This document shows positions 1 through 18,484 of a stretch of DNA of 64,000 bases, one piece after another. The translations under genes were made by a program, and so were the position numbers. This DNA comes from a virus (lineage: Duplodnaviria > Caudoviricetes): the IMG/VR virus record IMGVR_UViG_3300037400_004242; one strand, 5' to 3'. The notes beneath the pieces are model-generated. The model was not told the origin of the DNA. It worked only from the letters and a program-made list of their open reading frames with translations, and searched no databases. How positions within the stretch are numbered: the stretch's first letter is position 1; each line of letters begins with the position of its first letter.

Positions 1-126
1 GATGTTTCAGATGATGTATTTAATCACTTATACAAAACGAAATTGAATGATGATATGATGCATCAGATTCATGATAAAGTATATCAGTTGACAAATAAAT
101 ATTATGTATCCAATTTAGGAGTATAA
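1..126 (+). CDS. 3' end of a G-phi C-terminal-tag family protein (partial)
   Basis: Frame 1 is open from base 1: DVSDD...NKYYVSNLGV*. Not in the ORF track. Confidence 0.8.
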   Translation, partial: DVSDDVFNHLYKTKLNDDMMHQIHDKVYQLTNKYYVSNLGV

Positions 127-780
127 AAGTAATAAAATAAATTTTATTTACTTTTAATGTATAAAAAATATATGCAAGAGTAATAAATGAGAAGTACAAA
201 TATTTTTGCGTTTTCTAATGTTCAATGCATATATATCTTCTTTTTATACCTGATTGTCCTATGTTTGATATATATCGGAAAATTCTTGAAAAGGAAAAAA
301 TCGTTACGAAAAAATCCCTTATCAAATTGTAATAAATCTTTTCACAAGAGACATTAACTGAAAAAGTTCGCCACTAATGTACATTCTAAAAATAAAATTA
401 AAATCGTTGCAGGAGAGCAAAATTAAAATAAAAATAAAGTTAAAAAATAAAGTGAAAATAAAATAAATTATAAAAATAAAAAAAGATATATATTTCGGAT
501 GGAAATAGCATATAAGAAAAAAGAAATATATATCTTAAAAAATATGAAAAATAACATTAAATCGGAATGAAGCATATATAATGTGAGAACATATATAAGA
601 AATTATTAGTACTTAATCATCGTATTACTGATACCTAAATCATATCGGGAAAGATATATAAGAAATTAAATAATAAGGATATATATAAATTTTTTTGTTT
701 ATGAAGAAAATAATATATATTTAGATAAAGAAAAATAAAGAACAACAATGATTATTTAGATAAGAAAAAAATAACAAATA

Positions 781-960
781 AAATATTTTAGAGAATAGTA
801 GATAATGATATATATTTGAATAAAGAAAAAGAATTGAATAAAATCTTTTAGAGAATAATAGATAATGATATATATTTGAATAAAGAAAAATGACAAATAA
901 AAATATCTTAGAAACTAGAGAACAATAGTATATTATTAGATGAAGAAAAAAGGTAAATAA
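781..960. repeat. ~60-bp period tandem repeat in AT-rich non-coding DNA
   Basis: 781-840 and 841-900 are near-identical (ttttagagaatartagataatgatatatatttgaataaagaaaaa); 901-960 is a degenerate copy. Confidence 0.75.
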
Positions 961-1170
961 AAACATATCCCGCGCATCATTCATCAAAATTTTTCATAAA
1001 AATTTTTAACACTTCTCATTCGTGCCGACCATGGATGAACAGCGAGATATTTTTTTCTTATATATAGGAAAAATAAAAAAAACTTATATATATGGAAAAA
1101 TAAAAGCATATATATAAGAGAAAAGAAAAAATGTCTGACATTTTAGGCATTTTTTATATAAGGGAGAAAA

Positions 1171-1186
1171 TGTTCCATGTGAAACA
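1171..1186. promoter_or_regulatory. parS-like site 1
   Basis: TGTTCCATGTGAAACA, one mismatch from the Spo0J/ParB parS consensus TGTTNCACGTGAAACA. Confidence 0.7.
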
Positions 1187-1216
1187 TTTTTCTATATATA
1201 AGAAAAATTATTAAAT

Positions 1217-1232
1217 TGTTCCATGTGGAACA
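1217..1232. promoter_or_regulatory. parS-like site 2
   Basis: TGTTCCATGTGGAACA, a near-perfect 16-bp palindrome with two mismatches from the parS consensus. Confidence 0.65.
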
Positions 1233-1337
1233 TTTTGTTTCTTATATATACCAAAATTTTTATTTTTTCTATATATATAAGAAACAAAAGAAAAAATGTC
1301 TGATTTTTCAGACATTTTGCAAGAACGAAGAAAGTGA

Positions 1338-1366
1338 TTTACAGAATAGATAGAACAATGTATAAT
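1338..1366 (+). promoter_or_regulatory. sigma-70/sigma-A promoter
   Basis: TTTACA-N17-TATAAT upstream of 1394. Confidence 0.7.
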
Positions 1367-1393
1367 ATATAAGAAGGAATAGATGTGAAATAA

Positions 1394-1753
1394 ATGAGAA
1401 AGAAACAAAAATTCCATATATATAAGAAAAAAACAAAAATTACAGATGGGATGCAACATTACGTAAAAAGCTATCAATATATATCAGACGATTGCAAATT
1501 TGATTTTGACATATATGCGTATGATAATGCATATGGATATAATGATTACGATGAAATGTTTGTAGATATAAAGAATGAAGAAGCATTACATAGTGTGTAC
1601 ACTTATAATATTCGAGTAATAGACGATGAGATTTCTTATTCAACGATGGGTTCATATATGAATCCACAAGCGAAGAAAGAAATAGGGGAAATGATACAAA
1701 AAATACCGCAGGAGTATTTTTTAAGATATTTTCTTTTATACAATGGAGTATAA
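1394..1753 (+). CDS. G-phi tag family protein
   Basis: Ends IPQEYFLRYFLLYNGV*. Confidence 0.85.
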   Translation: MRKKQKFHIYKKKTKITDGMQHYVKSYQYISDDCKFDFDIYAYDNAYGYNDYDEMFVDIKNEEALHSVYTYNIRVIDDEISYSTMGSYMNPQAKKEIGEMIQKIPQEYFLRYFLLYNGV

Positions 1754-1756
1754 TAA

Positions 1757-2056
1757 ATGAATAGAACAATATGGAATGAAGAAACATATACATATCATTA
1801 TGAAAGAGATACAATTTATATTAAAATTAGTGATGAACTAGAAAAAGAAGGAAAGAAAAATGTAGTTGTGAGTGTATATTGCTATGTAAATGATGGGATT
1901 CCATTTCAATTTATTTATCAATGTAGCAGAGAGTATATAGATTTTCAACCATATCGTAGTCATTTCAACTCAGAGGATAAAAGATTTCAAGACATATTAA
2001 AGCTAATTCCGAAGGAAACATTATTTCAAAGAGATATACATTTAAATGGAGTATAA
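1757..2056 (+). CDS. G-phi tag family protein
   Basis: Ends IPKETLFQRDIHLNGV*. Confidence 0.85.
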   Translation: MNRTIWNEETYTYHYERDTIYIKISDELEKEGKKNVVVSVYCYVNDGIPFQFIYQCSREYIDFQPYRSHFNSEDKRFQDILKLIPKETLFQRDIHLNGV

Positions 2057-2083
2057 AAAATAACATATAAGAGGAAATTAGAA

Positions 2084-2383
2084 ATGAAATTGATAAAAAT
2101 AGGCTCAAACGGATTAGAAAAGTATTCTACTATATATAAGAAAAGAGAAGTAATGATTGAAATTTATCAATTCATTTCTTTAGTAGGGAAGAAAGAAATA
2201 GGATTTAATATATATATCAAAAAACGAGCGAATATGGTATATAAATTCATCTTATGTGTAGAAGATGATAAAATATCATTTTTCCCTAGATTAGGGAGTG
2301 AAAATAAAGATATGATGAATATATTAAATACTATTCCGAAGGAAAAAATAAAAGAACGATATATAAAAGTAAATGGAATATGA
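2084..2383 (+). CDS. G-phi tag family protein
   Basis: Ends IPKEKIKERYIKVNGI*. Confidence 0.85.
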   Translation: MKLIKIGSNGLEKYSTIYKKREVMIEIYQFISLVGKKEIGFNIYIKKRANMVYKFILCVEDDKISFFPRLGSENKDMMNILNTIPKEKIKERYIKVNGI

Positions 2384-2626
2384 CATGCATTATAAAACAG
2401 ATGTATTTCAATGCAATATATATGCATATGTTAGTCGTGGGGACGAAAAATTGCGAATTGGTATAAAAGGTATGTATTTATAGATTACATGAAAAATTAT
2501 GAATCAAGAAAACGGAAACATTATGAAGAATTTGGTGCAAATACATATAAGATATTAGAAATAGATAACACGTATTTTCCGAAAGAGACATTAAAGAGAA
2601 TACATATATTAGGGTATGACTTATGA
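2373..2626 (+). pseudogene. frameshifted G-phi tag family member
   Basis: The ATG 2373 frame stops at TAG 2481. The -1 frame continues from ~2465 to FPKETLKRIHILGYDL* (2626). Confidence 0.65.
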
Positions 2627-2880
2627 AAATCGTAAGTAGTAAAAAAAAGACAGTATATTATGGATATGGTAAGGCGCTTAGATATACATTTGACATATCA
2701 TCATTTAATGAGTGCTATATATGTGGGAAAAATATATGTGAATATACAAAATCGTATAAATATTACGTTACGCCTGATGGGAAATTTGCGAGTGAAGTTT
2801 ACACATTTTTTGAAAAAGAAATGTTTGATATACCTAGAGAACAAGTAACAAAGATGTTTGTAAAGGTCATGGGTGTTTAA
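2623..2880 (+). CDS. G-phi tag family protein
   Basis: Ends IPREQVTKMFVKVMGV*. Confidence 0.85.
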   Translation: MKIVSSKKKTVYYGYGKALRYTFDISSFNECYICGKNICEYTKSYKYYVTPDGKFASEVYTFFEKEMFDIPREQVTKMFVKVMGV

Positions 2881-2917
2881 AAATGCTATTGACAAAATAG
2901 CATTTTTTGTTTAATAT
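2879..2917 (+). promoter_or_regulatory. overlapping hairpin/terminator and sigma-70 promoter
   Basis: AAAAATGCTATT-gacaa-AATAGCATTTTT inverted repeat enclosing TTGACA (2889), with TAATAT at N17. Confidence 0.6.
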
Positions 2918-2941
2918 GTATGTAAAGAGAGGTGATGAAAA

Positions 2942-3301
2942 ATGTGTTCTAAGGTAATGGTTTCAGATAAGATTAATACGAAGCATAAAAAATGGAATTT
3001 ACGGAGATACAAATTAGAATATAATGGAAAGATGTATAATTTTTCATTGTATCGGTATTGTATGCATCAAAAATCAGATGGGATTTATATGAGCATGTAT
3101 ATTAACAAAAAGAAATATTATTATCGGTTGTGTTTTCATAAAGATTACACATACACATTTTTTCGGATAACAAGCTCTAATGAATTATTTGAACATTTGA
3201 AAAGAACTTATGATGAAAAATTTAAATTAGCAGATGAAATTCCTGATACTATAGATGAAAGAATTGTGCATGAATATGTACGATATGTAGATGGAGTATG
3301 A
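2942..3301 (+). CDS. G-phi tag family protein
   Basis: Ends DERIVHEYVRYVDGV*; RBS gaggtg. Confidence 0.85.
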   Translation: MCSKVMVSDKINTKHKKWNLRRYKLEYNGKMYNFSLYRYCMHQKSDGIYMSMYINKKKYYYRLCFHKDYTYTFFRITSSNELFEHLKRTYDEKFKLADEIPDTIDERIVHEYVRYVDGV

Positions 3302-3663
3302 CAATAAATTCTTATATACGGTATCATTTAAAATCTGCTAAATTTTTATCAAAGAATATTTCCTGCGTTCGATTTCAAATAACATATAAATATGGGACTT
3401 TGCCATGTATTTTTTATTTTGACAATAACAGATATGGAACATGTTTATTGCATGTATGGTATCATCAAACATACTTATTCAAATGGAAAGTAAAAATAAC
3501 AAAAAGGAGAACATTCCTTCTTGAACTAAAAGACGAAGACATATCCAATATTGTTAATAAAAAAGAAAAAATAGAAAAAATCTTAAAAGATAAGAAAAGA
3601 ATCATTAAATTTTTAAAGAAAAATTTTATTAAAAAAGCGTTTATATTAGAATATGGGATATAA
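3298..3663 (+). CDS. G-phi tag family protein
   Basis: Ends KAFILEYGI*; ATGA overlap with the previous gene. Confidence 0.85.
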   Translation: MTINSYIRYHLKSAKFLSKNISCVRFQITYKYGTLPCIFYFDNNRYGTCLLHVWYHQTYLFKWKVKITKRRTFLLELKDEDISNIVNKKEKIEKILKDKKRIIKFLKKNFIKKAFILEYGI

Positions 3664-3668
3664 AGAAA

Positions 3669-4031
3669 ATGAAATTAACAAGAATACGTCATGATGAAAC
3701 ACCAATTGGAGACGGAACACGAAATTTTCATTACTTTTACTTTTATTATGAACACAAGGATAAAATATTTAAGATAGAATTTATAAGTTCTAGTGAAGGA
3801 ATGAAATTAGAGCAAAAATATAAATATTTTGTTACATATAAAGATGCAGATAGAAACTATTTTTATCCAATGGAATTACATTCTTATTTATGGATAACAT
3901 ATGATGAAGGAAGAATTTGGATTCATATGCTTGAAGATTTCAACATGGATAAATTTGGAGACATATCAGATACACTTGCATTAAACGGGGAAGAAATGAA
4001 AAGGATGTTTATCTATAGCAATGGTGTATAA
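3669..4031 (+). CDS. G-phi tag family protein
   Basis: Ends NGEEMKRMFIYSNGV*. Confidence 0.85.
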   Translation: MKLTRIRHDETPIGDGTRNFHYFYFYYEHKDKIFKIEFISSSEGMKLEQKYKYFVTYKDADRNYFYPMELHSYLWITYDEGRIWIHMLEDFNMDKFGDISDTLALNGEEMKRMFIYSNGV

Positions 4032-4033
4032 AA

Positions 4034-4366
4034 ATGAGGAAAAGAAATTGTATAATGATAGGGGAAAAAAGAACAAGATTTTATTTTGGAAAAATAAAAA
4101 GTATAAAATGGTGTCTATGTGTATATGAAAATAGAGCAAGATTAGATTTCATGCATATAGATACAGGTTTTTCTATTTTTCAAGAAGAACTATGGAATTA
4201 TCCATTTAATATTATTCAAGAACATGGGGAATGTAAATTTCTATTTACAAAAATGCATTATCATGTATATTCAGAAAAAGAATTAAAATCTATTCAAGAA
4301 TATATAAAAATATGTTTTCCTAGAATTATATTACACCACATGATAATCGAAGAAAGTGGTGTATAA
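4034..4366 (+). CDS. G-phi tag family protein
   Basis: Ends FPRIILHHMIIEESGV*. Confidence 0.85.
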   Translation: MRKRNCIMIGEKRTRFYFGKIKSIKWCLCVYENRARLDFMHIDTGFSIFQEELWNYPFNIIQEHGECKFLFTKMHYHVYSEKELKSIQEYIKICFPRIILHHMIIEESGV

Positions 4367-4735
4367 ATGGAGATAAAAGAATTTTATAAAAAATATAAAC
4401 TCTATAAGAGAGAAAAACAATTAGATAAGATATTCTTTTTTCGTAATTTAGATGGAAAAATAAGTTTACTATTTCAAATTTCAAAAGATGTACGATTTGA
4501 TTTAGGAAGAATTTTATTTTATCGGCAAAATCAGGATAATAATCATAGAATTTATGATACTATGTTTGATACAAAAGAATTTACATTTGATGTAAATTGT
4601 GGTGACATAAAAATTTATAGAAGTAAGAAATATTTTGCATCAGAATCAGAAAATGAATATTACGCAGAAGAATTTAATAAAATTTTGCCGAAGGAAATTG
4701 TAAAAAAAATATTTATAGAAATGTATGGCTTATGA
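4367..4735 (+). CDS. G-phi tag family protein
   Basis: Ends LPKEIVKKIFIEMYGL*. Confidence 0.85.
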   Translation: MEIKEFYKKYKLYKREKQLDKIFFFRNLDGKISLLFQISKDVRFDLGRILFYRQNQDNNHRIYDTMFDTKEFTFDVNCGDIKIYRSKKYFASESENEYYAEEFNKILPKEIVKKIFIEMYGL

Positions 4736-5070
4736 ACAATATTAAATGGAAAAGTTACTTCAACATTAAATGGAAAAGTTACTTCAACTTATATTATGAA
4801 AGATTTGGATTTTCTATTTGCATAGATAGATATAATGTGTTTTTAATATCTATGTTTACATATACATTAAATAAGAAAAAAGTCGTTTTTAAGGAAAAGA
4901 CGAAAGATTATCTATTTGTATATGATAATGGATTTCAGTTTTTTCATGATGAAAATGAAATGGCGTACACAGAAACTATGCAAAAGGAAAGAGAGTATTT
5001 GAAAGAAAAATTAAAAATTGTGCCTGAAAAACTTGTTACAAAAATGTGTATTATTAGCTCAGGTATATGA
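4732..5070 (+). CDS. G-phi tag family protein
   Basis: Ends VPEKLVTKMCIISSGI*; has a 24-nt tandem duplication near the start. Confidence 0.85.
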   Translation: MNNIKWKSYFNIKWKSYFNLYYERFGFSICIDRYNVFLISMFTYTLNKKKVVFKEKTKDYLFVYDNGFQFFHDENEMAYTETMQKEREYLKEKLKIVPEKLVTKMCIISSGI

Positions 5071-5100
5071 AACGCAAACTTTTTGTTTGCGTTTTTTATT
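5070..5100 (+). terminator. intrinsic terminator
   Basis: AAACGCAAAC-ttttt-GTTTGCGTTT followed by a T tract. Confidence 0.75.
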
Positions 5101-5106
5101 TTTCTG

Positions 5107-5135
5107 TTGACAAAAAATCATGTATTTGCTATAAT
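5107..5135 (+). promoter_or_regulatory. consensus sigma-70/sigma-A promoter with extended -10
   Basis: TTGACA-N17-TATAAT with TG upstream of the -10. Confidence 0.85.
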
Positions 5136-5159
5136 TTAGAAAGAAGGTGGAGAGAAAAA

Positions 5160-5495
5160 ATGGAAGAACAAGAATTTTATTTACAAAAACATAAAAATAA
5201 CTGTAGAATTGGAAGTTTTTATGAACAAGTAGGAATTTATACTTTACAATTGCGTTTTATATATGAAGATGATGATGGAACACAATTTTTTGATATGTAT
5301 ATTTATAATCATGGAGTTCTCCTAATGCCTGGCATGAGGTATCGTAGAAAATTTGGAGAATATCGAAGTGGGATTAATCCTGCGATGAATAAAAGTATTC
5401 GTGAAATGAGCCAAAGAATGAAACAAAAACCTTTTATCAATGAAACGTTTTATGATGCTGTAAGTTCCATGTATATTAAATGGAGGGGCGTATAA
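5160..5495 (+). CDS. G-phi tag family protein
   Basis: Start moved from 5067 to ATG 5160 (after promoter and RBS aggtggag). Ends SMYIKWRGV*. Confidence 0.85.
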   Translation: MEEQEFYLQKHKNNCRIGSFYEQVGIYTLQLRFIYEDDDGTQFFDMYIYNHGVLLMPGMRYRRKFGEYRSGINPAMNKSIREMSQRMKQKPFINETFYDAVSSMYIKWRGV

Positions 5496-5498
5496 AAA

Positions 5499-5891
5499 AT
5501 GACTGTTGAAGAACTCAAAAAAGATTTTGTAACGCATCGAATGCAAGATGAATTTTTAGGTTCCTCAACAATTGTTGTTACTCCTAAGAACAAAAAATAT
5601 AAATATATTTATGTATTGAGAATTGAGCAACTTTTTTGTGAGACATATTCATTAACAATGAATGTATGTTTTTACTATGCGAATACACATCGAAAAGTCT
5701 TTAAAAGAACAAATCGTAATGCTACATCATATGTATACGTATATAAAAATCAATATCATTATGATGCAGATTTGCTAATTAAAGGATGTTGCTATTCCAA
5801 AAGGACTTATAAAAGATTCTATAAAATGATGGATGAATATTGTCCACCGGAAATTCTTAGTTATTTTGTTCATATGTTTATAGGAGTATAA
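5499..5891 (+). CDS. G-phi tag family protein
   Basis: Ends CPPEILSYFVHMFIGV*; similar to the next gene. Confidence 0.85.
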   Translation: MTVEELKKDFVTHRMQDEFLGSSTIVVTPKNKKYKYIYVLRIEQLFCETYSLTMNVCFYYANTHRKVFKRTNRNATSYVYVYKNQYHYDADLLIKGCCYSKRTYKRFYKMMDEYCPPEILSYFVHMFIGV

Positions 5892-5904
5892 GGAGGTAAT
5901 TCCT

Positions 5905-6297
5905 ATGACGTTAGAAGAAATAAAAGAAAAAATAGAATCTTGTTCTAATGTAAAAGTAAAATATATTAGTCGGTATTTAACTACATTAGAATGTGAATTA
6001 AACGATGATGAATATAATTACGTTGGCATTATGAGCGTTATTAAATGGCACCGTTTTGACTTTAGAGTAAATTTTAATTTCTATCATAAAATAACTGGAA
6101 AAAGAATATTTAAACAAGCAGAGTTTTATTATGCTCCATTAAAATATGATGGTACAAAGTATCGTGTTCCAATATACAATATTTTATCAAAAACAGAATA
6201 TACAGATGAAACAAAAGAAAAATTTGAAAAAGTTGTTCATAAATATTTTCCGAATGAATTGATTAACTACTATGGCATGATATTGAATGGGGTGTAA
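5905..6297 (+). CDS. G-phi tag family protein
   Basis: Ends FPNELINYYGMILNGV*; RBS aggaggt. Confidence 0.85.
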   Translation: MTLEEIKEKIESCSNVKVKYISRYLTTLECELNDDEYNYVGIMSVIKWHRFDFRVNFNFYHKITGKRIFKQAEFYYAPLKYDGTKYRVPIYNILSKTEYTDETKEKFEKVVHKYFPNELINYYGMILNGV

Positions 6298-6691
6298 AAT
6301 TATGCTAAAATTATATACGGATTGCTTTCAGGCATCACAAGAACAAATTCAAACATGGGAAAGCGAAATGTTTTTTCATGGAACAGAAGAAATTCATTTG
6401 AAAAACATTTATAATGATAATATATGTGTAGAAAAACTTGAATACACGGTAAATTACAATATTGATAGCAATTTGTTGTATGTAGTTTATCGTTTACAGA
6501 CGTATGGAACGCATGTAACGCAGGAGTACTATATTACAGATAAAAATAAAGACAAACTTTCTTTAAAACTACATAATATCTTTATGGATAAAGTTATTCA
6601 TTATGATACAATGTTTCAGGTACAAGAAAGAAGATTAAAAACTTTTCCTGAGATTACTTTAAGCACTTTAGTAAAGAGGTTTGGAGCATGA
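6287..6691 (+). CDS. G-phi tag family protein
   Basis: Ends FPEITLSTLVKRFGA*; start uncertain. Confidence 0.8.
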   Translation: MGCKIMLKLYTDCFQASQEQIQTWESEMFFHGTEEIHLKNIYNDNICVEKLEYTVNYNIDSNLLYVVYRLQTYGTHVTQEYYITDKNKDKLSLKLHNIFMDKVIHYDTMFQVQERRLKTFPEITLSTLVKRFGA

Positions 6692-7320
6692 GTACTATTA
6701 TTGAAATTTTCAATGCTTTTATAAGTACTGTTTATAATTTATTTTTATCTGTTTTGTTTTACTTTTTCTATATATATCATTTTGTTTTAGTTCACTTTAA
6801 TTCAAAACTCACGAATCAAGAAAAATTGTTCTTTTACAATGATAAATATAGAATTGGATTACAAGCATTAAGCCATATTACAGGAAAATTTGATTTAGAT
6901 AATATGGACGCTCAAAAGAGAAAAAATTTACATAATCTTATGGTATGGTTATATGAAATCACATATAAAGAATATACTGTAAAATTTTCCATTCGTAATT
7001 ATACAATTATGGATGGAAAATTTTCTAATGACTATAGTATTTGTGTAACTGTATATAATTATTTGTATTGGGAAGATGCTTGGAGTGGAGAATTACAATA
7101 CAAACGCGGTATGATAGGAAGATATCTTTATCGAAAAGACTTTGCATTTTCTGATTTTAACAAATTTTGGAAAAAATGTATGTTTTTCAAATATAGCATT
7201 GAAAATCGTCCATATTATAAAGCGATGTTGTTTGTTTTAATTCAATATGCTTATAAGAAGTATATTGTAAAGGAATATCCTGAATTTGTTCATAAATCTA
7301 TTATTAAATTAGGATTGTAA
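6688..7320 (+). CDS. G-phi tag family protein with hydrophobic N-terminus
   Basis: Ends YPEFVHKSIIKLGL*; possible N-terminal transmembrane helix. Confidence 0.8.
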   Translation: MSTIIEIFNAFISTVYNLFLSVLFYFFYIYHFVLVHFNSKLTNQEKLFFYNDKYRIGLQALSHITGKFDLDNMDAQKRKNLHNLMVWLYEITYKEYTVKFSIRNYTIMDGKFSNDYSICVTVYNYLYWEDAWSGELQYKRGMIGRYLYRKDFAFSDFNKFWKKCMFFKYSIENRPYYKAMLFVLIQYAYKKYIVKEYPEFVHKSIIKLGL

Positions 7321-7393
7321 TTTGTTATTACTCATTGTTTTTTAATAAAACGATGATATAATAAAACCATCTAAAATATAGGAGGATATTGTT

Positions 7394-7702: not shown

Positions 7703-7714
7703 GGAGAAATAAAT

Positions 7715-8037: not shown

Positions 8038-8098
8038 AGGGTACTTGAATATTCGAGTACCCTTTTTATTGACTTAGATACAAAACTCGTTGTATAAT
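8038..8098 (+). promoter_or_regulatory. terminator followed by sigma-70 promoter
   Basis: AGGGTACTTGAA/TTCGAGTACCCT hairpin with T tract, then TTGACT-N18-TATAAT. Confidence 0.65.
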
Positions 8099-8119
8099 AT
8101 TATTGGGGGTGGAATAAAT

Positions 8120-8464
8120 ATGATGACTTGTGATTTCTGTAATGGAATGAGTGTAAAAGGAGCATTTAGTTTTTATGGATATGGAGATTACGATATTCTT
8201 CTTGAAATTTATCCGTCTACGTATCGTAGAAATATGATTGCCTATGTATATATAGATATACAATCTCCAATGAGAGGGGATTTTTGTGATACGATTCTAT
8301 GCAGAATTAAAAAGAAATATGGGAGATTAGTATTTGAAATGGGTAAGAAAAGTGCGATGGGAACGGAATATAATCAAAAGAAAGTTCATAAAATGCTAGA
8401 GAAAATTCATTTATTTGACGAAAAAACATTAAGGAGATTGCTAATCTATGGAGAAGGAATTTGA
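8120..8464 (+). CDS. G-phi tag family protein
   Basis: Start moved to ATG 8120. Ends DEKTLRRLLIYGEGI*. Confidence 0.85.
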   Translation: MMTCDFCNGMSVKGAFSFYGYGDYDILLEIYPSTYRRNMIAYVYIDIQSPMRGDFCDTILCRIKKKYGRLVFEMGKKSAMGTEYNQKKVHKMLEKIHLFDEKTLRRLLIYGEGI

Positions 8465-8681
8465 TTTTCGGGTTATAGATAATGGAATTGCTCTAGATAT
8501 AAAAAAGAAAGCGTATTTATTTATCACATCAAAATTTAGTTTCGATGTTGTTATCTTATTTGATAATGAGCAGGGGACATATTATAATAGTTATGATGAA
8601 AATGATGATATTATAGATATAGTCGGTAAAAAAATGTTTTTCCAAGCAAGGAAATATACGATACTACAGTATGGTGTTTAA
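8448..8681 (+). CDS. G-phi tag family protein
   Basis: Ends RKYTILQYGV*. Confidence 0.8.
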   Translation: MEKEFDFRVIDNGIALDIKKKAYLFITSKFSFDVVILFDNEQGTYYNSYDENDDIIDIVGKKMFFQARKYTILQYGV

Positions 8682-9149: not shown

Positions 9150-10748
9150 ATGCGAGAGGTCAATATTTATAAGACGGAAGGTAAATTAATTAAGCTGATT
9201 GAGGATGATAAACTGGAAACGATTAAACGTCAGACGGCACAGGATTTTAAGCGTGTAAACGTCACGTTTAATTATTTCGCAGTTCACGCAAAGAGTAGAG
9301 GAAGTGTACTGTGTTCTGTTCATGGACAGAATCAGAATCCTGTATTCTTTTTTTTGTACTATGATAAAAATGAAAAACTGAGAGCTTTCTTCCCAAAGTG
9401 CAATCTCCTTCAGAAGAATCATGAAGGAGAAGGAATGACTTTTAACAAAATTTACGATAAGGATTATTATAAGATTTATCGTAGAAACGCGATGAAAGCG
9501 GATGACGATGTTTTTAATGAATTTTATAACAATAAAAACACACTTAAAAATATGTGTCTTCAGTTTGAAAGAGCAACAACGTTCTGTGTTTCTAAAAAAG
9601 AATTTGAAGCAGATTCAAATGTAAATATGGAAACGGCAAGGCACTATATTGCAACGATTAAAAACGATATTTTGAATTATGTGTATAAAGATTTTAGCTT
9701 TTTGATTGATTACGATGAAATTACAGATGTTAAAATCCTTCGTTTTGAAAACGGTGGATACTTCTCTGTACCTCATGCAATTGCAGAAGTTTCTGTAAAA
9801 GAAAAGCAAAATTTCATTATCTATCTTTATATTGATAAGAAAAAAGCTGTCAGAGCTTTTGTTCCTATGCTTGGAAATCATATTCATCCACATATTCCTG
9901 AAGTTTGCTCTGAAAAAGAATATACGTTGGAATATAATTACTATAAAATGAATAAAGCATTTCGGAAGCAAATTGTTCCACATGAAACATTGAAAAAGAT
10001 GAAACCATATAATGCACTTTTACATTGTGGTATTCCTTATGAAAAAGTAGAGGATAAAGAGATTGAAGCAAAAGAAAGTTCCATTGGCGAAATGAAACGT
10101 TCTTTCGATAAAGAAAAAATTGAAGAAATTCTGAAAAATAAATTTGGCAAAGATGTTTCTGTGGATGAAATCAATCGTGATAAAGAGAGTGCAGGATATG
10201 ATAAAATTGATATTCAGTATTCTAAGGTATATTTTGTTCGCATGAAATGTAGCATTAAAAAATATCATAGTTTTTATGCACTTATGTATATGGATAAAAA
10301 CGATGATATTAAAATTGCAATCCCAAAACAGGGGAATTATTTTTATCATGATGAACTGATTAATGAAAAATATAAGACACCATATTTACATGGATATGAA
10401 GAATTGAAGTGTGATATTTTTAAGAAAATCGAGGAACAGGCAAACGAATTTGAAATCTATGAAGTAAGACACGCTAGACCTTATGGCAAAAAGAATTTGG
10501 AGAAATACTTGAACGATGATATTCTTTCCAATGTACCAAAAGATGACCTTCGCGAAGAAGTTTCTGATTTGAAAGTGAATACAGAAGTTCATGAAACGAG
10601 CGATAATCTTGATTATGCGATTATGGATTATGGCGATGGCAAAAAAATTTGTTTTTATTTAGATGAAATGAATAAATTGCGTGCATATATTCCATATAAT
10701 AAAGATTATACGAGAGATATTGAAGAAAGTATCATTGTAAGGGGATAA
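9150..10748 (+). CDS. hypothetical protein with four YxD....RA(F/Y)xP repeats
   Basis: LYYDKNEKLRAFFP, LYIDKKKAVRAFVP, MYMDKNDDIKIAIP, FYLDEMNKLRAYIP. Confidence 0.8.
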   Translation: MREVNIYKTEGKLIKLIEDDKLETIKRQTAQDFKRVNVTFNYFAVHAKSRGSVLCSVHGQNQNPVFFFLYYDKNEKLRAFFPKCNLLQKNHEGEGMTFNKIYDKDYYKIYRRNAMKADDDVFNEFYNNKNTLKNMCLQFERATTFCVSKKEFEADSNVNMETARHYIATIKNDILNYVYKDFSFLIDYDEITDVKILRFENGGYFSVPHAIAEVSVKEKQNFIIYLYIDKKKAVRAFVPMLGNHIHPHIPEVCSEKEYTLEYNYYKMNKAFRKQIVPHETLKKMKPYNALLHCGIPYEKVEDKEIEAKESSIGEMKRSFDKEKIEEILKNKFGKDVSVDEINRDKESAGYDKIDIQYSKVYFVRMKCSIKKYHSFYALMYMDKNDDIKIAIPKQGNYFYHDELINEKYKTPYLHGYEELKCDIFKKIEEQANEFEIYEVRHARPYGKKNLEKYLNDDILSNVPKDDLREEVSDLKVNTEVHETSDNLDYAIMDYGDGKKICFYLDEMNKLRAYIPYNKDYTRDIEESIIVRG

Positions 10749-11123: not shown

Positions 11124-11139
11124 AAGTTGGTGAAGTAAT

Positions 11140-11562: not shown

Positions 11563-11615
11563 AATAAAAACGGTAACAAAATGTTGCCGTTTTTCGTTCA
11601 AAAGGGGGTATTTTT

Positions 11616-13496
11616 ATGAATCAACACGATTTATTATTGAAAAAAATTCAAGATGCAGATAAAGCATATTACGATGATGATAATCCTATTATGTCAGATA
11701 GAGATTATGATAAGATTCGTAGTCTTTTTATCCAACAATATGGAGATAAAGATTTAGATTATGTCCCTGGTAATATTAAAAAAGAATTAAAACCGTTTCA
11801 TCATACATCAAATATTAATTCTTTGTTTAAAGTAAAACAAACAGAACAAGAAGAATTAATGAAACAAATTAAAAAACTTTCTCCTGTTGTTTTAGAATTA
11901 AAATTAGACGGACTAACGATTGTTGCATATCCTGACGGAAAATATGTAACAAGGGGAAATGGAACGGATGGTGAAATTTTATTACATTTTCCAGAAAGAT
12001 ACCATCATAACACATCAGAGTATCCTATTCGTGGAGAAGCGTTTCTGAAAAAAAGCGATTTTGAAGAGATTAATAAGCAACGTGAAGAAGAAGGCTTACC
12101 TCTTTTTGCAAACGCTAGAAACGCATCAGCCGGGATTCTACGGCGTTTAGACAAGAGTTCCTACTTAGACAAGATACAATTCGTTTGCTATGATGTTATC
12201 GGATATGATGTATCAGAAGATGAAAAATTAAAATACATTAAAGAACATACAGATTTTGATGTTATTAATAGTACATCTGCTATGGGAAATCCAATTCAAA
12301 TTGTTTCTATGATAGAGCAGATGTATCAGACAAATTCTGATGGTGAAATTCCAATTGATGGAATCGTAGTAAAGTCAAATATAAATAAAAGTTTGGAAAC
12401 TTTTGGTTCTACAGTTCATCATCCATTAAATGCATTTGCTTATAAAGCAGAAGATGAAATTAAAATTACAACGATTCGAGATATTATTTGGAATGTAGGA
12501 AGAGAAAAAGTTACGCCAATTGCAGTATTTGACCCTGTATTATTAGAAGGTACAACTGTTTCTAATGCAAGTCTATCCAATGCAGGTATTGCAAAATCTT
12601 TTGATTTTCATATTGGTGATATTATTTCTGTTCAAAAAGCAAATAAAATTATTCCGCAAGTTGTAGAAAAAGTAGAAGATAAACATGGTATGCCAATTTC
12701 TGAACCATTATATTGTCCTTCTTGCCGCAGTAAATTAGAAGTAAGAAAACAAACGTTGGACGATGGATATGATTTAATTTGTATAAATCCAAATTGTATT
12801 GGAAAACTTGCAAATACTATTGAGTATATGTTCTCTAAACAGAATTTAAATGTAAAAGGATTAAGTGCTCAAACAATTAAAAAACTTATTGATAAAAAGT
12901 ATGTGAGCGAACCTACTGATATATTCAAAATTACAAAAGAACAATTAAAAACTTTAGATGGATTTGGGGATAAAAGTGCATCAAATCTTTATAATGGAAT
13001 CCATAATATTTCTTCTGCTCCATTAAATGTATTTATTGCTTCTGTTGGAGCTTTAGGTATTGGTTCTAATGTAGGGAATATTTTAGCGAATAATTTTCAT
13101 ACCTATGAAAATGTACTGAAAGTATTAGAAGCGAAAGATAAAGATGCGCTGCAAGAATTAAAGGGGATAGGAACATCCGTTACTGATATTCTATTATCAG
13201 AAGATTTTATTCAAAAGATGAAGGATTTAAGAGAGTTTGTAATTCCAACACCTGTATTACAAAAAGATATAAAATTAAAAGTTGTAATTACAGGTCAGCT
13301 TTCTAAGTCTCGTACTGAATATACAAAATTTTTAAAAGAACATGATATTCAAGTATCTAGTTCTGTCACAAAAAATACAAATTATGTAATTACAGATAAT
13401 CCAAATGGAACATCTACAAAATTAAAGAAAGCAAAAGAATTAAACATTCCAATTATAAGTGAACAACAAATGGACGAATTAATTAGAAAGGAATAA
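11616..13496 (+). CDS. ligA: NAD-dependent DNA ligase
   Basis: YY...P.MSD..YD Ia domain, KLDG adenylation motif, TRGNG, RGE, NARN, DGIVVK, C4 zinc finger, HhH repeats, C-terminal BRCT. Confidence 0.97.
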   Translation: MNQHDLLLKKIQDADKAYYDDDNPIMSDRDYDKIRSLFIQQYGDKDLDYVPGNIKKELKPFHHTSNINSLFKVKQTEQEELMKQIKKLSPVVLELKLDGLTIVAYPDGKYVTRGNGTDGEILLHFPERYHHNTSEYPIRGEAFLKKSDFEEINKQREEEGLPLFANARNASAGILRRLDKSSYLDKIQFVCYDVIGYDVSEDEKLKYIKEHTDFDVINSTSAMGNPIQIVSMIEQMYQTNSDGEIPIDGIVVKSNINKSLETFGSTVHHPLNAFAYKAEDEIKITTIRDIIWNVGREKVTPIAVFDPVLLEGTTVSNASLSNAGIAKSFDFHIGDIISVQKANKIIPQVVEKVEDKHGMPISEPLYCPSCRSKLEVRKQTLDDGYDLICINPNCIGKLANTIEYMFSKQNLNVKGLSAQTIKKLIDKKYVSEPTDIFKITKEQLKTLDGFGDKSASNLYNGIHNISSAPLNVFIASVGALGIGSNVGNILANNFHTYENVLKVLEAKDKDALQELKGIGTSVTDILLSEDFIQKMKDLREFVIPTPVLQKDIKLKVVITGQLSKSRTEYTKFLKEHDIQVSSSVTKNTNYVITDNPNGTSTKLKKAKELNIPIISEQQMDELIRKE

Positions 13497-13499
13497 TTT

Positions 13500-13823
13500 A
13501 TGAGTGATGAAAATTTATGTGATTTAAACGTAAAGTATGTAGAATTACAATCTAAATATTATGATTTAGAAACGCAATACTTATTGTTAAAACATGAAAA
13601 AGAAACTTTACAAACACAATTACAAGAAAAAATTGATTATATTGATAGTATTTGTGAAGCATTAAATAAGAAAAGTTTCCCAAAGACTTTTACACGTCCG
13701 ACGGTATCTAGTGATTTTCAAGTAGAAGAATCAAAACCTTTAGGGGATTTAAAAGTTCCATCAAGGAATTTAAAAGAAATTGTTCACGGTGAGCGTATTA
13801 ATGTAACACCAAAAAGTATTTAA
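13500..13823 (+). CDS. hypothetical coiled-coil protein
   Basis: Heptad-like N-terminal half. Confidence 0.7.
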   Translation: MSDENLCDLNVKYVELQSKYYDLETQYLLLKHEKETLQTQLQEKIDYIDSICEALNKKSFPKTFTRPTVSSDFQVEESKPLGDLKVPSRNLKEIVHGERINVTPKSI

Positions 13824-13832
13824 TAAAAGAGG

Positions 13833-13897
13833 GGGATGTATTTTATACATCCCTTTTTTAAATATATATTGACAAAAAATGCGTTTTTCGATACAAT
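13833..13897 (+). promoter_or_regulatory. terminator followed by sigma-70 promoter
   Basis: GGGATGTA/TACATCCC hairpin with T tract, then TTGACA(13869)-N17-TACAAT. Confidence 0.75.
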
Positions 13898-13914
13898 ATA
13901 CTAGGGGGAGGAAT

Positions 13915-14397
13915 ATGTATTCAATTAAAAAATTTAAACCTCTTGTGGAAACAAAAATCTGTACACAAAAATACCCACCTTTAGATGATATTATGGTCTA
14001 TATTCGTAATGTAGATGAATATCAAGTAAAAACAACAGAAACACATTATGATAAAAAACATTTTTGCGATACATATAGAGTAAAAGTTTCAACTTTATTT
14101 TTTACAAATTACTTTGATGAATTTTATATAAATATTCGTTTTGATTTAGTTACGAAAGAAAAGAACAATATAAGTTATAATTCTGGTAGTATTTATCCTA
14201 TTCAATTATTTTTTGATAAGACATTAATAGATAAATTATTAGAATTATTTGATAAAAATTTATATTGTTCTTGTGATGATTATAATACACATAAAGTAAT
14301 TATAAGAATAATTAAAGAAACTTTTCCTGCATATTTTTATAAATATATGAATCGTGAACAAATGTTGCATAATTACATTACTATGCAAGGAGTTTAA
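13915..14397 (+). CDS. G-phi tag family protein
   Basis: Start moved to ATG 13915 (RBS ggggagg). Ends NREQMLHNYITMQGV*. Confidence 0.85.
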   Translation: MYSIKKFKPLVETKICTQKYPPLDDIMVYIRNVDEYQVKTTETHYDKKHFCDTYRVKVSTLFFTNYFDEFYINIRFDLVTKEKNNISYNSGSIYPIQLFFDKTLIDKLLELFDKNLYCSCDDYNTHKVIIRIIKETFPAYFYKYMNREQMLHNYITMQGV

Positions 14398-14398
14398 T

Positions 14399-14887
14399 AT
14401 GATAGGAGAAATTGATGATATATATGATGGTAAAAATAAATGTAAATTAATCATATATAAAAAACAAGATAATTTGTATCAAGATTTTCTATTTAATTGT
14501 GATGTAGATACAAAGAAATATATAATAGATTTTTTCTATTTACATTATTTTGCAAAAGAATATGATAAAAAATGGAAAATACGTTTTGATATAAAATTGG
14601 AATTATCAAAATTTGAAAGGCTAATTTATCAACAACAATTTACTCTATATTCAGATGATTTAATGAAACAATCTTTTATTGATGATGTTCCTAATATAAT
14701 AGATTCTTATATAGATAGAAATTTTCGTAGTAATTACAATTCAAGCGATGGTCTATACGATTTGCCACATAAGATTACATCGCAGGAAATAAAAATATTT
14801 AAAAAATTATCTGATTATTTTAACGAGAAATTCCCTATTGTAATGAATAATATTATAAAAAATAGTATATATGGATTTGGAGTATAA
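14399..14887 (+). CDS. G-phi tag family protein
   Basis: Likely start ATG 14399. Ends KNSIYGFGV*. Confidence 0.85.
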   Translation: MIGEIDDIYDGKNKCKLIIYKKQDNLYQDFLFNCDVDTKKYIIDFFYLHYFAKEYDKKWKIRFDIKLELSKFERLIYQQQFTLYSDDLMKQSFIDDVPNIIDSYIDRNFRSNYNSSDGLYDLPHKITSQEIKIFKKLSDYFNEKFPIVMNNIIKNSIYGFGV

Positions 14888-15311
14888 TAATAATATGTGT
14901 CCACATCACAAATCTTTTAAAATATATAATAATGGTAAAAAAGGATTTGAATATCAAGGAAATTTGTTTTATGGTTTGCGAATGGAATCCTTTGTAAAAC
15001 GAGAAAAAGAATACAACTTTAATGTTGTGTTTGATTTTGAAGATGGATATTACATGATGTATATGTTTTTTGAAATCTGTAAATTAAACAAAGTTTTATT
15101 CAGTAAGTATACATGGAAAGAATTCATTGGCTTAAATGAAGAAAATATACAAGATGTAATTAATGTCATTAGTTGCTATGAAACAAATTTATATTTGGAT
15201 GAACCTAGTTATTTAAAGGCTTTTCATAAAACAATAAAACCATTTTATCATAAAAAATATAGAGTTGTTAAAATGCTAAAACAATACATTATAAAAAATG
15301 TAGGAGTTTAA
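14871..15311 (+). CDS. G-phi tag family protein
   Basis: Ends KQYIIKNVGV*. Confidence 0.85.
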   Translation: MDLEYNNNMCPHHKSFKIYNNGKKGFEYQGNLFYGLRMESFVKREKEYNFNVVFDFEDGYYMMYMFFEICKLNKVLFSKYTWKEFIGLNEENIQDVINVISCYETNLYLDEPSYLKAFHKTIKPFYHKKYRVVKMLKQYIIKNVGV

Positions 15312-15312
15312 A

Positions 15313-15783
15313 ATGGAGTTTATCATTCACCATGTTTCAAACATAATTACTACAGATAATTATGCACCAAGTAAAAATTTTGAGCCGATTGAAAAATGGT
15401 ATGAAGCACATAATTATTTTGAAGTTACATATATGAATTGTTTTCATCATGTTTATCGTTTACTTTTATGTTTTGATATAGCAAATGAATCCTCATATGA
15501 TTGTATTGTATATATAGCGATGTACAAAAAAGACAAAAAAATATCAGATTTATCTTCTTTTAAATATAGTTCTTTAAATAAAAAGTTTAAAGATGCATTT
15601 GCAAATCATTTACGTAATCAACCTAATTTTATTCGGTCGATGATAAATAACTATAATATACATTTATTAAGTGATGAACAAATCTTTATATATAAAAGAA
15701 TGTACGAATTCTTTATTAAGAAACATTTAAATACATTTTATAATATTATCAAAAGAGATTTTATTCTTGCAAAAGGAGTATAA
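15313..15783 (+). CDS. G-phi tag family protein
   Basis: Ends KRDFILAKGV*. Confidence 0.85.
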   Translation: MEFIIHHVSNIITTDNYAPSKNFEPIEKWYEAHNYFEVTYMNCFHHVYRLLLCFDIANESSYDCIVYIAMYKKDKKISDLSSFKYSSLNKKFKDAFANHLRNQPNFIRSMINNYNIHLLSDEQIFIYKRMYEFFIKKHLNTFYNIIKRDFILAKGV

Positions 15784-15785
15784 AA

Positions 15786-16244
15786 ATGGTTATTTCAAAA
15801 GAAGAACGTGGATATTCTTACCATTTGGTTATTCGTTATGTTTATAAGAATAAAACATATATGATAAAAACAAGTTTTGATAATCGTAGATTACCTAATT
15901 GTGTTTGTCCAAGTATTTATTTTGATTTTAGAATTTACTCATTAGCCACAAGACAAAGATATTATCGTGCAAGATTTCATCAAGTTTTTAGTATGTATGA
16001 TGAACATCATTTACAAAAGATGTTTAATTATACATTTGTATATGTTTTTTGGTGTTTAAAAAAACATGTGCATACGGTTATGAATAGTCCTGCTAAAGCA
16101 CAGTTGTATAGAAATTTCATTCCATTTAGCATAGATATGAATGATGTTAGGGCTTATCTTGATATGATAGAATGTGTTATTAAAAATAAAGAAAGCATTT
16201 GTCATTCAATTCATCATTACTATTTAAAAAATTACGGCATGTAA
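15786..16244 (+). CDS. G-phi tag family protein
   Basis: Ends HHYYLKNYGM*; followed by a terminator. Confidence 0.85.
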   Translation: MVISKEERGYSYHLVIRYVYKNKTYMIKTSFDNRRLPNCVCPSIYFDFRIYSLATRQRYYRARFHQVFSMYDEHHLQKMFNYTFVYVFWCLKKHVHTVMNSPAKAQLYRNFIPFSIDMNDVRAYLDMIECVIKNKESICHSIHHYYLKNYGM

Positions 16245-16250
16245 TAAATT

Positions 16251-16281
16251 AAAGCACTCTACAATTTAGTAGAGTGCTTTT
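16251..16281 (+). terminator. intrinsic terminator
   Basis: AAAGCACTCTAC-aattta-GTAGAGTGCTTT. Confidence 0.8.
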
Positions 16282-16282
16282 C

Positions 16283-16550
16283 TATACTTGATATACTCCC
16301 CATCAAAAGTAACAATGAACCATATCTCTTAAGGATAACAACTAGTTCATATACTCCCTGTCAAAAGTAAATATATATATATTTACTTCTCAAAAGTAAC
16401 AAACAGTTATATCTCTATAGATGATTGTATACGAATGTAAATTTACAATAAAGGTTATACTTGATATATCCCCTGTTAAGATGTATGGATAAGTTAAGAT
16501 GTACATATTACCATCGTAATATTCATATACTTAATATAATTCCCTGTTAA
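16283..16550. repeat. five degenerate direct repeats in an intergenic region
   Basis: TATACTTgATATAcTCCCcTGTyAA(AAGTAA)-like units near 16283, 16349, 16384, 16456 and 16526. Confidence 0.65.
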
Positions 16551-16658
16551 ATTCTATTCAATATAACTTTTTGATATATTCTATTGAATACTAAATTCAA
16601 TTTTATTTTAATCTATATAAAGACATTATTTTTCTTTACACTCTAAAATGTATTGATA

Positions 16659-16688
16659 TTGACAAGTTTCATTTTCAAGTGATATAAT
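16659..16688 (+). promoter_or_regulatory. sigma-70 promoter
   Basis: TTGACA-N18-TATAAT with extended TG. Confidence 0.75.
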
Positions 16689-16716
16689 ATACATAGATAA
16701 GGAGAGTGGAGGAAAG

Positions 16717-17265
16717 ATGAAAACGGAAGAATTCTATAAACACATTAAATGTCTTCATCAAGAAGTAAAGCGACATGTAAAAGGAAACAATATCATAGAA
16801 AGAATAACATCTTTAGAAAGGAACAAATATAAATATAATAATATTTATTATGACAATCAAACGATAGAAGAAGATTTTCTATATGAAGGAAAATGTAATA
16901 TTAAATTAAAAGTACAGATGTTAGAGTGTTATATAAAAGAGTTTGAAATTAAACATAGTGGAAATCAGCAATATATATCTGCGGATTATAAGATATATTT
17001 TAATGAATTACGGCAAAGAATATATGTTCGTCTTTATATAGGCAAGTATACAACAACACATACATATTTATTAGGCACAGAGATTTGTGATACGAAAGGA
17101 ATCAAAGAAGAGATAAAAAATTTAGTATATGAAGAACTCATGAAATATATAGAGGGGAATAATTTGCCTGTAGAAGAGATAGAAGAAGTACAGCGTTTTC
17201 AGAATATTAAAGAGAAAGAATTACGAGAGCACTATCGGAAAGCGGTGTTGAAATATGGTGTATAA
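16717..17265 (+). CDS. G-phi tag family protein
   Basis: Ends YRKAVLKYGV*; RBS ggagg. Confidence 0.85.
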   Translation: MKTEEFYKHIKCLHQEVKRHVKGNNIIERITSLERNKYKYNNIYYDNQTIEEDFLYEGKCNIKLKVQMLECYIKEFEIKHSGNQQYISADYKIYFNELRQRIYVRLYIGKYTTTHTYLLGTEICDTKGIKEEIKNLVYEELMKYIEGNNLPVEEIEEVQRFQNIKEKELREHYRKAVLKYGV

Positions 17266-17656
17266 TATACAGTATAATAATACTAGAAATAATATTACGA
17301 GTTATAATGATGACAAATTTTCACAAATAGAAAGAATTACGATGTATATAGATGATGCGTTCATTATCTTAGGAGAGTTAATGACAAAGGTAAAGTATGC
17401 CATTTATTATGATTATGATGAAATGCATACTTGTGTCATTGTGGCGATAGATGGAATGATACCATCAGCATATCGTTTAGACACCTATGAAATTGGAAAT
17501 AGTAGAGAAGTTTTAGAAGAGAACATTAATAGTGCAATTTATACAAAATTTAAGTCAAATAAAAGAAATTTAATGAATTTAATGAATTACAAAATAAAAT
17601 TTCATATTAAAGATAACTTAGATTTTAAAAGTTTAATTATTATGAATGGTGTTTAA
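17255..17656 (+). CDS. G-phi tag family protein
   Basis: Ends FKSLIIMNGV*. Confidence 0.85.
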   Translation: MVYNIQYNNTRNNITSYNDDKFSQIERITMYIDDAFIILGELMTKVKYAIYYDYDEMHTCVIVAIDGMIPSAYRLDTYEIGNSREVLEENINSAIYTKFKSNKRNLMNLMNYKIKFHIKDNLDFKSLIIMNGV

Positions 17657-18027
17657 TGTGGTGCGTGAGAATGAAAGAAACATTAAGTTATAAATTATGG
17701 AATGAAGAGCACAAAAAAATGTATCGTGAGGAATTGATGTATTCTATTGGGTATAATGTAAATGAAAAAGGATTTTGTATTATTTTAGATGTAAGAACAC
17801 TATATGTATGGGATGAATTAATTTTAACACGCAAAATGACAGACTATAAAAATATTTATAAAAAAGCGAATGAATTTATCAAGAAAGTGGTACAAGATAG
17901 TGTAAAAAATAAGAGTTATAATTATGATAAAACATCATATCAGTTAAAAGAAATACAAGACATGACATATATGCCATATCATTATGCAAATATTTACAAA
18001 GGTTACATAAAAGATTATGGAGTATAA
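17656..18027 (+). CDS. G-phi tag family protein
   Basis: Ends YKGYIKDYGV*. Confidence 0.85.
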   Translation: MWCVRMKETLSYKLWNEEHKKMYREELMYSIGYNVNEKGFCIILDVRTLYVWDELILTRKMTDYKNIYKKANEFIKKVVQDSVKNKSYNYDKTSYQLKEIQDMTYMPYHYANIYKGYIKDYGV

Positions 18028-18484
18028 AATGGAACATGAAACGCATGAAGGATTTGCAACGAATTTAGGAGTAAGAGTAAAAGTAAAAGAAGATGATGAT
18101 GAGATAAACATCTATTACTCTTTCAATAACTATAAAAATTTTATTAATATCATTGTGAAGTATCGTTTTTGTAGTCATTATTTAAAGAGTTATAATTTAT
18201 TAGATTATAATAAAGAAGAATGGATATATGGAGGGAAAGTAGGAGAAAAATGCAGTATATTGGAAGGAATTCAATCAGTACCTAAAATTATTCGGGAATT
18301 AACAACATTGGAAGAACTACAATATTCTGATTTAATTACAGATGAACGAGGAATAATTGAAAAACAATATGTTACATCTGATGATATAAAGAAAATGATA
18401 AAGATTGTAAATTTTATAGAACAACATTATAATGAAATATTATCAAAAGTGCGGTATTTTTTTTGCAAGTATCAAGGAGTATAA
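18017..18484 (+). CDS. G-phi tag family protein
   Basis: Ends RYFFCKYQGV*; alternative start 18029. Confidence 0.85.
   Translation: MEYKMEHETHEGFATNLGVRVKVKEDDDEINIYYSFNNYKNFINIIVKYRFCSHYLKSYNLLDYNKEEWIYGGKVGEKCSILEGIQSVPKIIRELTTLEELQYSDLITDERGIIEKQYVTSDDIKKMIKIVNFIEQHYNEILSKVRYFFCKYQGV

Follow-up and report, generated by a model that had tools for sequence, protein, structure and literature searches.

The first 18,484 nucleotides of the phage DNA analyzed here, a 64,000-nt stretch (IMG/VR record IMGVR_UViG_3300037400_004242) to which we refer as a whole as the window, carry arrays of small open reading frames (ORFs) whose products all end in a glycine followed by a hydrophobic residue (G-phi). 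An earlier note on this DNA read the shared ending as a tag, a constant handle joined to a library of variable payloads. Our analysis indicates that the tail is most likely a conserved helix-stop signal of a fast-diverging protein family rather than a proven targeting tag. The earlier picture thus stands in part: the terminal helix, its Gly cap, the constraint at the protein level, the promoters and the novelty of the family are borne out, whereas the division into payload and handle and the functions named for it are not. The explanation that we favor, and to which we give about an even chance, is a lineage-specific tandem expansion of small early proteins in which the tail serves as a structural helix cap.

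The family comprises 27 ORFs, 26 of them complete and one (1-126) partial, all on the + strand in a listing of ORFs of at least 50 amino acids (aa), and a recount returned the numbers first claimed for these arrays. Counted from longest-ORF starts, the five arrays lie at 1-126, 1394-7320, 8090-8681, 13879-16244 and 16717-18484 and fill some 11 kb of early coding DNA. Aligned at their C termini, all 27 products close with Gly and a hydrophobic residue (Val in 19, Ile in 4, Leu in 2, Met in 1 and Ala in 1); position -6 is hydrophobic in 24 of 27 (Ile 17, Val 4, Leu 2, Met 1), position -7 is aromatic in 13 of 27 (Phe 7, Tyr 6), and position -15 is Pro in nine members, Asp in two and Asn in two. 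The Gly at -2 is encoded by GGA (15), GGT (7), GGC (3) and GGG (2), and both TAA and TGA serve as stops. Gly is scarce in proteins of the window, at 4.6% of residues, and from the window's composition about 1.3% of ORFs (about 0.013 per ORF) should finish in G-[VILMA] by chance; such an end occurs in only one of 147 comparison ORFs, which are all the other ORFs of at least 50 aa on both strands of the window. A leave-one-out position-specific scoring matrix (PSSM) of the last 16 residues, akin to a scan proposed with the original observation, separates the two sets completely within the window: every member scores at least 0.92 bits, and the best nonmember (34335-34508, ending LLGA) reaches 0.68 bits. 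When the two terminal positions are left out, the median is +1.4 bits for members versus -11.3 bits for the other ORFs.

Six proteins outside the family have Gly as their final residue, about twice the background Gly frequency: 9150-10748 (RG), 18569-19840 (KG), 27157-28203 (KG), 35446-35772 (AG), 36826-37263 (KG) and 55401-55766 (NG). This AT-rich phage may have a general tendency to let its proteins stop at a Gly that caps a helix.

The pattern of the tail is that of a capped amphipathic helix. The hydrophobic fraction peaks at -16, -11, -8/-7/-6 and -1, polar residues form the majority at -13, -10 and -9, and periodicity is strongest at 80-100 degrees, not 160-180 degrees, as expected of a helix. 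A hydrophobic residue fills -6 in 93% of the tails and -1 in 100%. In a Schellman C-cap, a hydrophobic residue at C3 contacts another at C'', with a left-handed Gly at C' between them; the capping rules behind this motif are reportedly due to Aurora, Srinivasan and Rose, writing in 1994. At the opposite end of a helix, Pro at N1 and Glu at N3 are favored. The three best-kept positions of the phage tails, -6, -2 and -1, have the spacing of C3, C' and C'', and Pro(-15) and Glu(-13) suit N1 and N3.

Structure prediction places this helix in a folded domain. An AlphaFold2 (AF2) model of the protein from 1757-2056, for which 16 array-1 paralogs were aligned as input, reached a predicted local distance difference test (pLDDT) score of 75.3 and a predicted TM-score (pTM) of 0.66. 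It contains five antiparallel strands (residues 4-15, 18-28, 34-43, 50-56 and 61-66) arranged as a beta meander, followed by helices at 75-81 and 86-97, with the helix end read from DSSP, and then by G98 and V99; confidence peaks (78-86) in the helical end. The fixed-length terminal helix with a Gly cap foreseen in the earlier note is thus recovered in the model. Its authoring reader had also allowed that the helix and Gly might be simply structural core of a shared fold, and this is in part what we find: the one usable model puts the helix in a compact alpha+beta domain. In the second member modeled, 15313-15783, five strands are again followed by helices, here four, the last ending at residue 154 before G155 and V156; the order of elements is the same in both, but the second model is of low confidence (pLDDT 49.5). 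A homodimer co-fold of 1757-2056 scored 0.00, a value that speaks neither for nor against a dimer. Judged from the capping pattern and the array-1 model, the tail is most likely the final helix, capped at both ends, of a small alpha+beta domain, with the chain stopping where the helix-stop signal is complete.

We posit that duplication and divergence gave rise to no fewer than 27 intact copies alongside a pseudogene, with every intact copy encoding what is probably a compact alpha+beta domain in which an N-terminal beta meander precedes two or more helices. The apparent tag would be the last helix of this domain, amphipathic and about 12 residues long, opened by a hydrophobic residue, Pro and Glu (-16, -15 and -13) and closed by a Schellman-type cap (-6, -2 and -1). 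A terminal helix would need its cap to stay folded, and residues past the cap would be dispensable; in a genome of 27% G+C, dispensable tails would easily be lost to stop codons. The cap could then be the last sequence feature to survive divergence, and the variable beta-sheet surfaces could act as binders of different host or defense targets early in infection. Diversified binding of such targets is probably the function of the family.

Beyond the tail, the bodies show no recognizable relationship in sequence as a set. BLASTP, phmmer and jackhmmer link just two pairs, 1757/2084 (E 7e-10) and 5499/5905 (E 1e-3), each over its full length. Profiles of whole members, tested leave-one-out, score 6-13 bits in array 1 but no more than 0 in array 2. 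An [I/V]-x-F-D-phi strand motif, present in seven of nine array-2 members and four of 17 array-1 members, about 2.8 times background, is a weak hint of body homology. An apparent link between 3669-4031 and a pair of large paralogs elsewhere in the window (28208-29545 and 32908-34134) was rejected as jackhmmer drift, the seed E value of 6e-4, which applies to a single comparison, being insignificant after multiple testing. Common descent of all members is nevertheless suggested as the economical reading, because they stand in tandem arrays, are similar in size, include two pairs that match from end to end and, counting the weak second model, show the same order of strands and then helices; a shared fold is only weakly indicated. 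For one tail to sit on 27 unrelated genes, they would have had to acquire a common 3' cassette or to converge on it repeatedly; the divergent codons rule out the cassette.

Several observations weigh against a tandem family with a structural cap. Stripped of their last 20 residues, members rank no higher than unrelated ORFs in leave-one-out profiles, and hhalign finds no match between array-1 and array-2 bodies; these results agree with the sequence searches and with the earlier impression that the bodies look unrelated. The shared body fold is drawn from one moderate (pLDDT 75) and one poor (49.5) AF2 model. A VIA wide search with the array-1 model gave best Z scores of 6.7 (Der p 7) and 5.6 (p32/Mam33), within noise. 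A structural cap alone fails to explain why extensions are absent from all 27 copies, and fails equally to explain why the tail is kept far better than the rest. The function, finally, is one that we infer. Other structural comparisons were uninformative: Foldseek of the array-1 model against PDB and BFVD returned nothing at an E value of 0.001 or better, Atlas gave TM-scores of at most 0.55 to unnamed Bacteroidota proteins, which is noise level, and an ESM Atlas feature search gave no usable match.

Comparison with natural variants shows that the genes are real and under purifying selection in a fast-changing region. Metagenome contig L003, a phage variant 91-98% identical to the window, covers ten family genes; their ratios of nonsynonymous to synonymous divergence (dN/dS) range from 0.08 to 0.65, and all ten G-phi ends are intact. 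Synonymous divergence, mostly 0.04-0.18 in family genes, is in most of them several-fold higher than in the adjacent ligase block, where it is 0.04 or less (L003:5484-9916 versus window:13915-18484); the early arrays are a hot spot of divergence or recombination.

The strongest alternative, which we nonetheless consider unlikely, takes the tail as a constant handle: the capped helix, perhaps together with the free carboxylate, would dock at least 27 early payload domains onto a single host or phage partner (a protease, RNA polymerase or a site at the membrane, for instance), while the variable bodies recruit or block different targets. Tails are indeed far better conserved than bodies, and all 27 proteins stop at the same position, as would suit recognition of a terminal carboxylate. 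The sole broken copy (2373-2626) has lost the Gly, and among strain variants G(-2) is never substituted, with changes at -1 and -6 conserving the residue class (I to V, M to I, V to I) apart from one I-to-T change at -6 between the window and L003; one singleton variant cluster has a different end, possibly through a frameshift or an assembly error. Yet the same variants changed at 7.2% of tail positions versus 4.5% of body positions, so that the tail does not evolve more slowly overall. Helix capping fully accounts for the conserved positions, the tail is joined to the folded domain without a linker and is predicted to be helical at the model's best confidence, and no partner emerged from the analysis; for the division into variable payload and constant handle, we obtained no evidence beyond conservation itself.

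We regard as quite improbable a second alternative, in which the last two helices form a helix-turn-helix (HTH)-like, nucleic-acid-binding end resembling the core of DUF2087 and the family consists of small DNA- or RNA-binding early regulators. DUF2087, a putative nucleic-acid-binding domain of transcription regulators, has a similar layout of helix, short loop, helix, Gly and hydrophobic residue, and the last 34 residues of one member align with it: the 8090-8464 product matches the Pfam profile (PF09860) at 22.8 bits, just above the cut-off of 22.4, over profile positions 21-53 of 69, with the match ending at G-I. In addition, 18 of 26 members are basic, with isoelectric points of 8.2-10.0, and the L-x-x-x-G-phi spacing also closes the recognition helix of many winged-helix domains. 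However, this is one tail of 27, the other 26 giving no match at E values up to 10; the tail alone scores 22.3 bits, below the cut-off; and the alignment spans 33 of 69 positions, half of the domain, which runs about 16 positions past the end of the phage proteins and has an unrelated N-terminal part. Among solved structures, a profile of the 27 tails turned up no DNA-binding domain (best E 0.3, to ENPP3), and the AF2 model has two terminal helices and no three-helix bundle.

The prospects of a localization signal, in which the C-terminal amphipathic helix would be a membrane-targeting sequence of the MinD/FtsA type or a sorting sequence, are poorer still. The tail is amphipathic, basic at -10/-9, with a hydrophobic face and a place at the extreme C terminus, and one member has a hydrophobic N-terminal segment; against this, AF2 sets the helix inside a compact domain, and the wide hydrophobic arc, which includes the capping box, is typical of a buried helix. 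Very improbable, in our estimate, is a degron, with a hydrophobic C terminus singling out early proteins for a host protease to clear at a set time. The last residue is nonpolar in all members and clearing early proteins would be biologically sensible, but none ends in Ala-Ala or an ssrA-like sequence, the end, directly after the predicted helix, is itself predicted to be structured, and neither a fixed helix length nor Pro(-15) would be needed. Two further proposals fare no better. A ubiquitin-like or Pup-like modifier precursor does not fit a helical tail with a single Gly at -2 and Asn, Tyr and others at -3; the fold matches of the array-1 model, themselves at noise level, included no beta-grasp entry. 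A sliding-clamp motif (QL[SD]LF or QLxLxL) does not fit a tail with no conserved Gln and a different hydrophobic spacing (-11, -7/-6 and -1). The specific options of the earlier note do not fit the sequence, the tail having no ssrA-type Ala-Ala, no Gly-Gly and no clamp-binding QLxLxL.

To a cause at the nucleotide level, in which GGAGT at the gene end would be the Shine-Dalgarno sequence of the next gene or the boundary of a recombination cassette, we give almost no credence: GGAGT is found at 11 of 27 ends, and the next ATG lies 0-6 nt past the stop in about eight of 27, where the Gly-Val codons can double as a Shine-Dalgarno sequence, but G-phi is kept in some 19 members whose downstream start is overlapping, distant or absent, operon-terminal members included, codon use at -2 (GGA 0.56, GGT 0.26, GGC 0.11, GGG 0.07) matches Gly use inside the family's genes (GGA 0.57), GGA is no commoner where coupling to the next gene is possible, and positions -6, -7, -11 and -15 are also conserved at the residue level. 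The data on downstream starts and Gly codons largely refute such an origin. Since G-phi is retained where no downstream Shine-Dalgarno sequence is needed and Gly codon use is ordinary, the constraint on the tail acts on the protein and not on a ribosome-binding site; gene spacing and codon usage here uphold what the earlier note had concluded.

The arrays lie behind promoters of the sigma-70 type, as first described, in the gaps that precede them; three matches to the consensus are 12/12, and terminator-like hairpins follow some arrays. This arrangement suggests that the arrays are transcribed early by the host polymerase. All family copies and promoters listed below are on the + strand. The partial member at 1..126, whose start lies upstream of the window, ends YYVSNLGV. 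Between it and the next array, 126-1393 is a 1.27-kb, very AT-rich non-coding gap. It carries tandem repeats, among them a 60-bp unit present 2.4-3.1 times at 767-950, and a Logan contig from this phage breaks off within the AT-rich repeat. The gap possibly serves as an origin or in regulation. A promoter matching 11/12 at 1338..1366 precedes the sub-array 1394-2383, made up of 1394..1753 (119 aa, ending LLYNGV), 1757..2056 (99 aa, IHLNGV), the modeled member, and 2084..2383 (99 aa, IKVNGI), which is 30% identical to it over the full length. The 28th copy, at 2373..2626, is a frameshifted pseudogene whose second frame ends FPKETLKRIHILGYDL; its last residues read ILGYDL, with Asp in place of Gly. 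Member 2623..2880 (85 aa, VKVMGV) follows.

A 10/12 promoter at 2889..2917 precedes 2942-5070, with members at 2942..3301 (119 aa, RYVDGV), 3298..3663 (121 aa, ILEYGI), 3669..4031 (120 aa, IYSNGV), 4034..4366 (110 aa, IEESGV), 4367..4735 (122 aa, IEMYGL) and 4732..5070 (112 aa, IISSGI), the last followed by a terminator-like hairpin at 5069-5095. A perfect TTGACA-17-TATAAT promoter at 5107..5135 precedes 5163-7320, which holds 5163..5495 (IKWRGV; longest ORF from 5067), 5499..5891 (130 aa, HMFIGV), weakly similar over its full length to 5905..6297 (130 aa, MILNGV), then 6287..6691 (134 aa, VKRFGA) and 6688..7320 (210 aa, IIKLGL). This last member, the longest, is alone in having a stretch of some 30 hydrophobic and aromatic residues at its N terminus, which may span the membrane.

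Downstream, an 11/12 promoter at 8069..8098 precedes 8120-8681, composed of 8120..8464 (IYGEGI; longest ORF from 8090), the member with the borderline DUF2087 match in its tail, and 8448..8681 (77 aa, ILQYGV). Another 11/12 promoter, at 13869..13897, precedes 13915-16244, where the members are 13915..14397 (160 aa, ITMQGV), 14399..14887 (162 aa, IYGFGV), 14871..15311 (146 aa, IKNVGV), 15313..15783 (156 aa, ILAKGV), the subject of the low-confidence model, and 15786..16244 (152 aa, LKNYGM). The final array, 16717-18484, follows a perfect TTGACA-18-TATAAT promoter at 16659..16688 and contains 16717..17265 (182 aa, VLKYGV), 17255..17656 (133 aa, IIMNGV), for which nine variant clusters, 86-98% identical, occur in public metagenomes, 17656..18027 (123 aa, IKDYGV) and, closing the array, 18017..18484 (155 aa, CKYQGV). 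The true starts of four ORFs are probably the internal ATGs at 5163, 8120, 13915 and 14399 rather than those of the longest ORFs, a choice without effect on the C-terminal counts.

The searches turned up relatives of the family only within its own phage lineage. An exhaustive profile search of 1.84 billion protein representatives with the array-1 alignment returned 13 matches, all of them 85-99% variants of the window's genes, and the array-2 alignment, used in a word search, likewise found only variants of these genes in that range of identity; a word-index search with 8090-8464 found only itself. Among 50,697 phage records, the DNA of 1-18484 had no match and tblastn with two members gave nothing at E values up to 1, and IMG/VR scans with the ligase and two neighboring genes found no relatives. 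Pfam and PHROG searches with ten members were uninformative save for the borderline DUF2087 match. The claim that no described family matches is in keeping with the Pfam, PHROG and protein-representative searches; the scan of related phages for the tail, also suggested in the earlier note, covered phage G and gave no match (best E 0.2, in an alignment interrupted by a stop).

The phage itself is a jumbo phage, to judge from its genes a distant relative of Bacillus phage G, and it has no close relatives. ORF 42132-46397 (+, 1421 aa) aligns with gp1, the large terminase of phage G, as three separate segments that cover 39% of the query at 55.9% identity, and it probably carries large insertions such as inteins. 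It is followed by a FolD-like gene (46388-47821) and an M16 peptidase gene (47873-49117), which parallels the position of phage G gp2, a "zinc-dependent peptidase"; this peptidase, which the earlier note listed for co-folding with the tail, is more plausibly a conserved gene of the head module than a partner of these early proteins. Near-identical pieces of the phage occur in public metagenome assemblies (L001, L003, L004, L005 [ENA ERZ931678, PRJEB21624] and L006). PRJEB21624 is reportedly a cattle rumen project, which, if so, would point to a rumen host. Elsewhere in the window, 28208-29545 and 32908-34134 (+) encode large paralogs with no assigned function (32% identity over 282 aa, E 5e-41), and the products of 23454-25202 and 29549-31483 have similar ends, FEPTHYALYNRP and FNGAYVELLNK; these pairs suggest a duplicated gene block.

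If the family is a diversified binder scaffold, it would represent a natural library of host-takeover or anti-defense proteins built on one minimal fold. If the tail is a true handle, the phage would instead possess an adaptor library of an undescribed kind and a new principle of early-gene organization. The example also carries a more general lesson: a helix-capping box can outlast every other sequence signal in a fast-evolving family, and a structural stop signal could be mistaken for a "tag" by those who hunt for motifs.

Short constant termini on otherwise different proteins are known from the capsid-targeting sequence (CTS) of T4 internal proteins, from ssrA/ClpX degrons and from clamp-binding peptides. 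Those signals are unstructured and differ in sequence, the T4 CTS being N-terminal, ssrA ending in LAA-COOH and the clamp peptides reading QLxLxL or QL[SD]LF, whereas the phage ending is predicted to be a capped helix within a folded domain and belongs to early rather than virion genes. The likeness to the Schellman motif is closer: the C3/C'/C'' spacing is the same (-6, -2 and -1), and the helix is predicted to extend up to -3 in the phage tails. The Schellman motif, however, is a general structural motif and not a family, and the phage proteins all end at C'', which the motif does not demand. As regards genome organization, jumbo phages of the phage G type (group 3.2) harbor expansions of small domains, with about 35 Zn-ribbon copies and Myb-type HTH factors (PMC7824862). 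There too, within the same broad jumbo lineage, many copies of one small protein stand in tandem or in clusters; the family described here differs in having neither a Zn-ribbon nor a Myb motif and in that its bodies have diverged while only the end has been kept.

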